Origin: Candidatus Bathyarchaeia archaeon
GTDB lineage: Archaea > Thermoproteota > CALKCG01 > B24
DNA length: 64,000 nucleotides
Reading direction: 5' to 3'
NCBI GenBank assembly: GCA_038870975.1
Contig: JAVZJD010000002.1
Span: forward strand, 32,001-96,000
Shown here: in pieces, positions 2,034 through 60,098 of the stretch
How positions within the stretch are numbered: the first letter of the stretch is position 1
How the letters are laid out: each line of letters begins with the position of its first letter
Translations under genes and position numbers: made by a program
Notes under the pieces: model-generated
Database searches by the model: none
Told to the model about the DNA's origin: nothing
Seen by the model: only the letters and a program-made list of their open reading frames with translations

Positions 2034-2758
2034 CTACCACCATCCCCTCCATCCCTTCTTACCCCTTAAAGGTACGAATGCTACACCACCCAAGTGTACT
2101 GTTTCAACAGTTTCATCGCTACGCTTGTACGCTTTAACCAATTCTTGGAATCCACCTGGCGGTCCAATGGGTGCGACTATGAGACCGCCTACTTTAACCT
2201 GTTCGATTAGAGTGTCTGGGATCTCTGGGGCTGCGGCTGTAACGAGGATGCGGTCGTATGGTGCTTTTTCAGGATAGCCTAGAGAGCCGTCTCCATGTAT
2301 GACTGTGACTCTATCTGAGTATCCGCTTTTACGTACGTTTTCCTCAGCCATTCTGTAAAGCTCGAAGATTATTTCAACCGTCCAGACGTGTCCCCACTTC
2401 TCCCTAGGTTCATCAGACGGTGCGACTACTTCAGCTATTGTACAAGCGTGGTATCCTGAGCCGGCTCCAACCTCTAGAACTTTTAAACCCACTTCGAGTT
2501 CAAGCGCTTCATTCATTATACAGACCATGTTTCACCCCTCTAGCCTTCTGGCTAGAAGTGTGGTGCGGATATGGTTTGACCGTAGCCTATCGGTAGTGGT
2601 GTGTCGACGTAGGCGTATGGCTTTAAATATTCCGGTAGAAAGTTCTCCCTTGGGACTCTTCTAAACGCCTCTATGACTTTCTCCGTCTTGAGGATGCCTT
2701 CTCTAACGTAGATGTCTATCAACTTCTCCTTCTCTCTTTTAAAATCCTCAGAGGACAT
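2034..2758 (-). CDS. pcm: Protein-L-isoaspartate O-methyltransferase, two exons (2758-2560 and 2530-2034; 231 aa after splicing)
   Basis: Upstream ORF has [26 protein letters not shown]; downstream ORF has [45 protein letters not shown]. Removing 2531-2559 joins them in frame as SAPH-MV. Confidence 0.93.
2531..2559 (-). other. 29-nt bulge-helix-bulge (BHB) intron in pcm mRNA
   Basis: RNA: CACC-AC^A-CUUCUAGCC-AGAA-GGCUAGAGG-GGUG-AA^A; 4-bp central helix CACC/GGUG, two 3-nt bulges, 9-bp intron stem. Confidence 0.85.
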
Positions 2759-59991: not shown

Positions 59992-60098
59992 TGCGGGGGG
60001 TGGGATTTGAACCCACGAAGGGCTACCCCACAGCGGCTCTGAGGATAATATTTTTCCTCCTCAGCGCTGCGCCTTAGGCCATGCTTGGCTACCCCCGC
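59992..60098 (-). tRNA. tRNA-Leu(GAG) with 22-nt intron at position 37/38 (60037-60058)
   Basis: GCGGGGG/CCCCCGC acceptor stem, CAGCG-CT-GAG-G, BHB CUGA-GGA/UCAG-AGC, long variable arm, A discriminator. Confidence 0.93.

Follow-up and report, generated by a model that had tools for sequence, protein, structure and literature searches.

The stretch of DNA analysed here, called the window throughout, comprises 64,000 nt and corresponds to positions C2:32001-96000 of the metagenome-assembled genome (MAG) of a Bathyarchaeia archaeon from a hot spring, which has 1.85 Mb, consists of two contigs (C1 and C2) and is 93% complete. Near the start of the window, on the minus strand, the pcm gene for protein-L-isoaspartate O-methyltransferase appears as two open reading frames of 68 and 164 aa lying in different frames (Table 1). 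In profile searches, the first ORF matches positions 2-60 of the Pfam family PCMT and the second one positions 61-209; for the full-length NCBIfam model NF010549 the corresponding stretches are 4-64 and 65-214. Since both profiles continue directly from one ORF into the other (60 to 61 and 64 to 65), the break sits between adjacent profile positions, inside the invariant SAPHM motif; the interrupted codon is that of the histidine, within the most conserved motif of the family. The 29 nt of the insert shift the frame by 2, besides bringing in an in-frame TAG, and from the reading frames a 68-aa fragment is the sole product that the exon-1 frame of an unspliced mRNA would give. A search of the genome revealed only one true pcm. 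The first-pass annotation of this DNA had read pcm as split inside a conserved motif by an insert carrying an in-frame TAG, and both ORFs and the TAG were indeed recovered where it had placed them.

Table 1. Coordinates of the pcm locus, of its predicted BHB elements and of other BHB-type inserts in the same genome (window positions unless a contig is given)
Feature	Position	Strand	Description
pcm N-terminal ORF	2552..2758	-	68 aa; ORF list
pcm C-terminal ORF	2034..2528	-	164 aa; starts MVCIMNEA; other frame
pcm exon 1	2560..2758	-	ATG at 2758; 66 codons plus C2560, first base of the His codon
pcm exon 2	2034..2530	-	AC of the His codon, then ATG from 2528; stop 2034-2036
BHB intron (predicted)	2531..2559	-	29 nt; in-frame TAG 2554-2552; BHB rule applied blindly, MFE fold
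Central 4-bp helix, 5' strand CACC	2562..2565	-	exon 1 Ala and Pro codons; pairs with 2533-2536 (MFE fold)
Central 4-bp helix, 3' strand GGUG	2533..2536	-	intron-internal; MFE fold, covariation
5' bulge ACA	2559..2561	-	unpaired in MFE fold; predicted cut between C2560 and A2559
3' bulge AAA	2530..2532	-	unpaired in MFE fold; predicted cut between A2531 and A2530
Inner helix h' and loop	2537..2558	-	CUUCUAGCC (2558-2550) with GGCUAGAGG (2545-2537), 9 bp including one G-U; AGAA loop 2549-2546
Outer pair G2566-C2529	2529..2566	-	single conserved pair closing the motif; relaxed BHB, minimal outer helix
tRNA-Leu(GAG)	59992-60098	-	Rfam tRNA, 45.3 bits; 22-nt BHB intron 60037-60058
aEF-2 insert	C1:642258-642288 (L127:359-389)	+	31 nt, 21 codons in; UUCG/CGAA, bulges AAA and AAA, 9-bp stem
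AmmeMemoRadiSam-type radical-SAM insert	C1:783508-783537 (L128:409-438)	+	30 nt, in frame, with stop
cbf5 intron	C2:281640-281656 (L129:1341-1357)	-	17 nt; loop-type motif scan

Structure of the insert and predicted junction

At the structural level, an unconstrained MFE fold of the minus strand between window positions 2515 and 2585 coincides with the proposed BHB motif (-26.6 kcal/mol, z = -4.4), and none of 200 shuffled sequences folded as well. Two 3-nt bulges lie on opposite strands with a 4-bp helix between them, and the elements follow one another in the canonical orientation: outer pair, 4-bp helix, bulge, inner helix, loop, inner helix, 4-bp helix, bulge and outer pair. Of the flanking helices, the inner one has 9 bp, and the outer one is reduced to an invariant G-C pair, joined by another pair in 23/65 relatives, so that exon-exon pairing amounts to 1-2 contiguous bp among the 65 elements compared below. 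The motif fits the relaxed HBh' form rather than the strict hBHBh' one. The geometry proposed earlier (CACC/GGUG, ACA, AAA, 9-bp stem and tetraloop) came out of the fold unchanged. Its exon-side pairing stood in part: the G-C pair is present in 65/65 elements, whereas the distal ACCAU/AUGGU helix, perfect in this genome, is not conserved, its middle pair occurring in 23/65 relatives and without compensation.

When the BHB rule is applied, excision of 2559..2531 produces GCA CCA C-AC AUG GUC (A-P-H-M-V, the hyphen marking the junction) and a predicted junction in which ...ATATCCGCACCAC is followed by ACATGGTCTG..., giving a protein of 66+1+164 = 231 aa. The 231-aa Pcm announced by the first-pass annotation was reproduced in this way, with the family models unbroken across the junction, and the genome-wide BHB scan described below independently recovers the element as C2:34531-34559.

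A stable hairpin beside a stop codon that comes soon after a potential take-off codon is also what translational recoding would use, with ribosomes either bypassing the 29 nt, as in phage T4 gene 60, or shifting frame. Nevertheless, the only landing codon for tRNA-His (CAU, 2529-2527) is out of the exon-2 frame and leads within a few codons to a stop, no take-off/landing pair exists in relatives whose bulge is UCU or ACU, and bypass requires no BHB geometry. Recoding is accordingly judged most improbable.

Same-site elements in relatives and selection on both exons

The interruption is not restricted to this genome. The PCMT profile is split at the same position in 5/5 same-genus genomes, in both same-family genomes and in five same-order genomes, as well as in two more distant genomes of the phylum (G023 and G028) and in a third (G035), where a 30-nt in-frame insert leaves a single profile match with one internal TGA. 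Conversely, pcm is uninterrupted in one family of the same order (f4) and in most other members of the phylum. Blind application of the BHB rule to the junctions of 16 relatives always yielded ...SAPHMV... with an open frame. The same was observed among 80 named Bathyarchaeia loci, about 59 of which carry the element and about 21 of which are contiguous: excision from the former also restored ...SAPHMV... and an open frame in every case. Among named records, the closest ones are MAGs from hot springs that carry the label Candidatus Bathyarchaeia or Bathyarchaeota. An assembly or sequencing artefact, for which the only ground is that the genome is a MAG in 2 contigs, is refuted by the presence of homologous inserts in dozens of independent assemblies from different studies, and its probability is practically nil.

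Altogether, a comparison set of 65 distinct same-site elements was obtained from several families of Bathyarchaeia; the sequences are related, so that the counts that follow overstate independent events. The elements measure 23-35 nt and fall into all three mod-3 length classes (28, 25 and 12), and every one of them blocks the pcm ORF, the 12 in-frame inserts by a stop (12/12) and the other 53 by a frameshift. The register of the central helix is the same in 65/65 elements, in the form of CGCC/GGCG (52), CACC/GGUG (10) or CGCC/GGUG (2), with a C.A mismatch in a single one (L114). Between CGCC/GGCG and CACC/GGUG both strands have changed, the Ala codon going synonymously from GCG to GCA and the intron from C to U to match, and the two CGCC/GGUG elements represent the G-U intermediate. 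The 5' bulge has 3 nt in 65/65 elements (ACA in 57, UCU in 5, ACU in 3), and the 3' bulge reads AAA in 44, AGA in 12, AUA in 7 and ACA in 2. Inner pairs 1-3 are formed in all 65 with 3-6 pair types, and the outer closing pair is G-C in 65/65. Of the modelled pairs, 98% are formed, a value that falls to 21-45% if the 3' strand is displaced by 1-3 nt. Given the variable lengths, the presence of all frame classes and the blocking of the ORF by every element, what is conserved, as judged by sequence comparison, is an RNA shape with single-base register, while sequence, length and frame vary. The alignment of pcm from relatives proposed by the first-pass annotation has in this way returned same-site inserts with covarying helices, and the predicted structure is backed by compensatory changes, the events being fewer than the counts because the sequences are related.

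The exon side of the motif seems to bear its mark as well. The junction His codon, whose C pairs with the G of the Ala codon, is CAC in 65/65 intron-bearing genes and CAT in 8/21 intron-free ones, and the third position of the Pro codon, where the bulge begins, is A or U in all intron-bearing genes and any base in intron-free genes. This is suggestive of constraint on synonymous sites within the motif, with the reservation that the sequences are related.

These observations bear on whether the insert might simply be retained, the 68-aa and 164-aa polypeptides assembling into an active Pcm with the second one started at the AUG after the insert. This AUG lies two bases past the insert, the 3' end of the insert in this genus (GAGGGGUGAAAC-AUG) resembles a Shine-Dalgarno site, and the 164-aa product is reported as a protein by public gene callers. 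However, a Shine-Dalgarno-like motif precedes the exon-2 AUG in only 13/65 elements, and the AUG is the Met of the invariant HM motif, present in intron-free genes too. Moreover, the exon-1 frame ends variably, 4-19 codons past the Ala codon, adding junk residues, the break falls inside the most conserved motif of the family, and a split gene requires neither a 4-bp helix nor exact 3-nt bulges nor compensatory changes. Such a two-polypeptide enzyme is considered improbable.

Both parts of the gene are under purifying selection. Between the window pcm and five other intron-bearing genes of the genus, dN/dS is 0.04-0.10 for exon 1 and 0.05-0.07 for exon 2, with dS around 1. In agreement with the earlier argument that two intact halves speak against decay, these values, together with an interruption shared, at an identical codon, by 65 distinct sequences of several families and with the single-copy state of pcm, refute the idea of a pseudogene inactivated by a small insertion, which the in-frame stop and the frameshift would otherwise evoke and which retains only a very slight probability. 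In a tree built on 162 columns of pcm, the intron-bearing genes constitute the backbone and the intron-free ones are nested in several places; parsimony counts 12 changes, only 2 of them being required by well-supported branches. The pattern is compatible with an old gain followed by repeated precise losses, which is as much as a short and weak tree supports.

Public RNA and protein records were also inspected. No contig of the metatranscriptome sets X1 and X2, which hold short contigs only, bridges the spliced pcm junction, and in two hot-spring metatranscriptome raw-read runs (X3 and X4), of which about 3% each was read, no reads fell on the stretch, so that these runs provide no test. One X1 contig (record 2; 271 nt, about 98% identical with 6 differences and 2 unaligned letters) aligns to 2262-2530 and ends exactly where exon 2 is predicted to begin (base 2530). 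Its end could reflect an assembly branch between spliced and unspliced molecules or strain variation of the intron, and it is not counted as evidence. In a collection of 5.8 billion proteins no full-length Pcm of the genus was found; the sole genus-level cluster corresponds to the 164-aa exon-2 product, and the 12 full-length matches, 62-70% identical to the compared loci, belong to intron-free lineages. Among the best 120 relatives of the product of window positions 2037-2528 (minus strand), about 105 are exon-2-only calls of 156-166 aa. Many exon-2-only calls are named protein-L-isoaspartate O-methyltransferase. From this proportion it follows that Pcm, and other genes split likewise, would be systematically mis-annotated as truncated or missing, a situation that distorts metabolic and completeness inferences in an abundant and uncultured lineage.

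Splicing enzymes and further inserts in the genome

Regarding the machinery, the genome search identified two genes of the EndA family, located at C1:251.5 kb and C1:270.2 kb. The first paralog (186 aa) is close to the alpha chains, the catalytic ones, in the heterotetrameric enzymes of the crenarchaea S. tokodaii, A. pernix and P. aerophilum (E 1e-36 to 1e-45) and retains Tyr, His and Lys where they are expected. The second (185 aa) is divergent, matches structural beta chains too and has a Pro at the catalytic His position. The catalytic positions are those we take to apply from the M. jannaschii enzyme. One alignment, read with these assumed positions, suggests that paralog 2 would be the structural beta subunit of a heteromer, and the occurrence of two paralogs likewise suggests an enzyme of the two-subunit type. 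The type matters because the outer helix of the pcm motif consists of one invariant G-C pair plus an occasional second one. Two-subunit EndA is reported to accept relaxed BHB motifs for cleavage and has been connected with the splicing of cbf5 mRNA (PMC5829648; reportedly also a 2006 study by Yoshinari). A profile search also detected RtcB in the genome. As a separate observation, the RtcB gene (L123/L124; C1:62226-65000, minus strand) is an open frame of 986 aa in which two segments, separated by about 1.4 kb, match Pfam positions 1-50 and 49-426. This arrangement is suggestive of an intein within the very RNA ligase that would join these exons.

The tRNA-Leu(GAG) gene of the window, missed by ARAGORN and found by Rfam, contains an intron after position 37 with a CUGA/UCAG helix and GGA and AGC bulges, in the same order of elements as in pcm. 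The claims of the first-pass annotation that a tRNA-Leu intron of the window shares the geometry and that the cell has the splicing machinery both hold: a 3-nt bulge, 4-bp helix and 3-nt bulge were read in that intron, and two EndA paralogs and RtcB are encoded in the genome.

It can accordingly be asked what EndA would do with the pcm transcript. In the proposed mechanism, the CACC of the exon 1 Ala-Pro codons would pair in the pre-mRNA with GGUG at the 3' end of the intron, flanked by the two 3-nt bulges and the 9-bp hairpin. EndA would cut after the second base of each bulge, and RtcB would ligate exon 1, ending in a 2',3'-cyclic phosphate, to exon 2 with its 5'-OH. Ligation would rebuild the His codon, as C plus AC, of SAPHMV, and with it the 231-aa protein-L-isoaspartate O-methyltransferase. 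Cleavage might also take place and lead to no productive ligation, EndA cutting the pcm mRNA to destroy or process it, for example into a nearly leaderless exon-2 RNA; the exon-holding outer helix is minimal, and a cut exon 2 would begin with AC-AUG, like a leaderless mRNA. Against this, ligation according to the rule restores the motif and the frame in 65/65 elements whatever the length of the intron, exons 1 and 2 are under equally strong purifying selection, which is hard to explain if exon 1 does not contribute, RtcB is present in the genome, and cbf5 introns of the same type are reported to be spliced in Crenarchaeota (PMC2738675). Cleavage of a purely destructive or processing kind consequently appears to have little probability.

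Taken together, the continuity of the profiles, the same-codon motif with its compensatory changes, the purifying selection acting on exons 1 and 2 and the genes for the enzymes favor splicing: positions 2531-2559 (minus strand) very probably constitute a tRNA-type BHB intron in the pcm coding sequence, spliced by EndA and RtcB, with cleavage and ligation in vivo being what we infer from sequence comparison. The first-pass proposal of an EndA/RtcB-type intron is thereby supported by the 65 elements, the selection and the enzymes. Its corollary that protein repair depends on tRNA splicing fits the copy number, since with a sole pcm in the genome Pcm synthesis would depend on the tRNA-splicing enzymes.

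Further mRNA inserts of this type were sought by scanning the whole genome for BHB motifs that, once excised according to the rule, would leave two abutting open frames fused. The first scan returned 1791 ORF-joining BHB-like matches, nearly all due to chance, and tightening left 39, among which motif continuity was observed in pcm, in aEF-2 and in a radical-SAM gene; a loop-type scan added cbf5. Full-length family models run on without interruption over the breaks in aEF-2, the radical-SAM gene and cbf5. This is the outcome of the search of split ORFs that had been suggested at first pass. Other candidates of the scan were rejected as neighbouring genes by their junction peptides, such as an EtfA-like ORF at C1:916463 and a HypE-like one at C1:741131.

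The aEF-2 gene is the only copy in the genome, and excision of its insert joins ...KELIR to NIGIIAHVDHGKTT, exon 2 starting at model position 21. The insert occurs in 16/23 genomes in which the gene was found, with a length of 26 to about 49 nt and a central helix that covaries among relatives (UUCG/CGAA, UCCG/CGGA, UUCG/CGAG). It is present in family f4, where the pcm intron is absent. Excision from the radical-SAM gene joins ...NPIE to KKPLYHFYPG, with TIGR04337 matched over positions 5-58 and 60-330; that insert is found in 13 genomes, with covariation between AGAG/CUCU and CGAG/CUCG. The cbf5 intron displays an 8-bp outer helix (7-8 bp), a CUCU/GGAG central helix and a loop in place of the inner helix. 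Its excision joins GHGGTL to DPPATG, the full-length model covering positions 2-66 and 68-319, and the codon of the catalytic Asp sits on the junction. The aEF-2, radical-SAM and cbf5 cases, being independent, greatly raise the likelihood that mRNAs are routine substrates of the endonuclease in this lineage.

Two other interrupted genes came to notice. An FkbM-type methyltransferase gene (C2:632195-632236, minus strand) has an apparent in-frame TAG just before a ...FDLVKIDVEGAE motif; its element was discarded as a false BHB candidate of the scan, and the TAG could indicate a pseudogene, a recoded stop or a sequencing error. In a same-order genome (G008, contig C9; L024:1471-2223, plus strand), a divergent second PIMT-like paralog is interrupted in frame by an insert that includes two stops and has a repeated YRDIVMVLG segment at its flanks, at a site that differs from the pcm intron site.

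Relation to known splicing systems

The cbf5 pre-mRNA intron of Crenarchaeota (Desulfurococcales and Sulfolobales) was reportedly described by Watanabe in 2002 and by Yoshinari in 2006. Splicing of this intron was shown experimentally in Crenarchaeota (Yokobori 2009, PMC2738675), in a paper according to which splicing of other archaeal pre-mRNAs was then unconfirmed (PMC2738675). The same survey found no cbf5 intron in Thermoproteales, Thaumarchaeota and Korarchaeum (PMC2738675), so that a cbf5 intron in Bathyarchaeia bears on when the cbf5 intron arose. Since 2002 the searchable literature names only cbf5 as a BHB-spliced archaeal coding sequence, as do recent reviews, and a 2025 EndA structure paper cites only cbf5 papers for mRNA introns. 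A full-text search of the literature found no paper joining isoaspartyl methyltransferase with BHB and none on Bathyarchaeota mRNA introns, in line with the first-pass annotation, which knew of no intron in pcm. There is strong support for pcm as a new host of an already known type of element, its splicing being deduced from comparison. A second host gene across many Bathyarchaeia would mean that mRNA splicing by the tRNA machinery is not confined to one gene, a conclusion strengthened by the similar aEF-2, radical-SAM and cbf5 introns in the same genome. Furthermore, pcm offers a testable system in which to study the processing by EndA and RtcB of a substrate whose exons hardly pair with each other, and the possible regulatory use of splicing in archaeal mRNAs.

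The closest parallel is the crenarchaeal cbf5 intron. In both systems a short BHB intron within a coding sequence interrupts a codon of an invariant motif, the lengths are both frame-keeping and frame-shifting, the distribution is patchy and consistent with one gain and repeated precise losses, and the hosts have a two-subunit endonuclease of broad specificity, as presumed for the present genome. Like a cbf5-type intron, the pcm element lies in a coding sequence, disrupts an essential motif and has to be removed; it differs in its host gene, a protein-repair methyltransferase instead of cbf5, and in its lineage, Bathyarchaeia. The cbf5 intron of this genome does occupy the published cbf5 position, at the catalytic Asp codon. 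The architectures also differ, since a strong inner hairpin characterizes the pcm intron, whose outer helix is nearly absent, whereas the cbf5 intron of the same genome has a 7-8-bp outer helix and a loop inside. Finally, cbf5 splicing was demonstrated by experiment in Crenarchaeota, and that of pcm is predicted. With the archaeal tRNA and rRNA BHB introns processed by EndA and RtcB, the pcm element shares the 3-nt bulge, 4-bp helix and 3-nt bulge and the cleavage rule; unlike them, it resides in an mRNA, where no tRNA body holds the exons and the outer helix is limited to 1-2 bp.

Outside the archaea, splicing of HAC1 and XBP1 mRNAs by the IRE1/RtcB system also removes a small intron independently of the spliceosome, with RtcB-type ligation in metazoa and a change of frame. 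The splicing proposed for pcm would likewise involve the removal of an mRNA intron by protein enzymes, RtcB-type ligation and an altered frame; the eukaryotic system differs in that the endonuclease is IRE1 and the signal consists of two stem-loops, and in that it is regulatory (a comparison drawn partly from PMC13149111). That pcm splicing acts as a regulatory switch, as the first-pass annotation had suggested, is speculation. In a broader version, the pcm intron would belong to a set of Bathyarchaeia mRNA mini-introns, comprising in this genome at least those of pcm, aEF-2, the radical-SAM gene and cbf5, whose splicing by EndA and RtcB may be rate-limiting or regulated. This is a tentative and rather doubtful proposal; if true, it would tie translation capacity, protein repair and rRNA modification to the state of the RNA-splicing and RNA-repair machinery, and the set would constitute an archaeal counterpart of the mRNA splicing controlled by IRE1 and RtcB.
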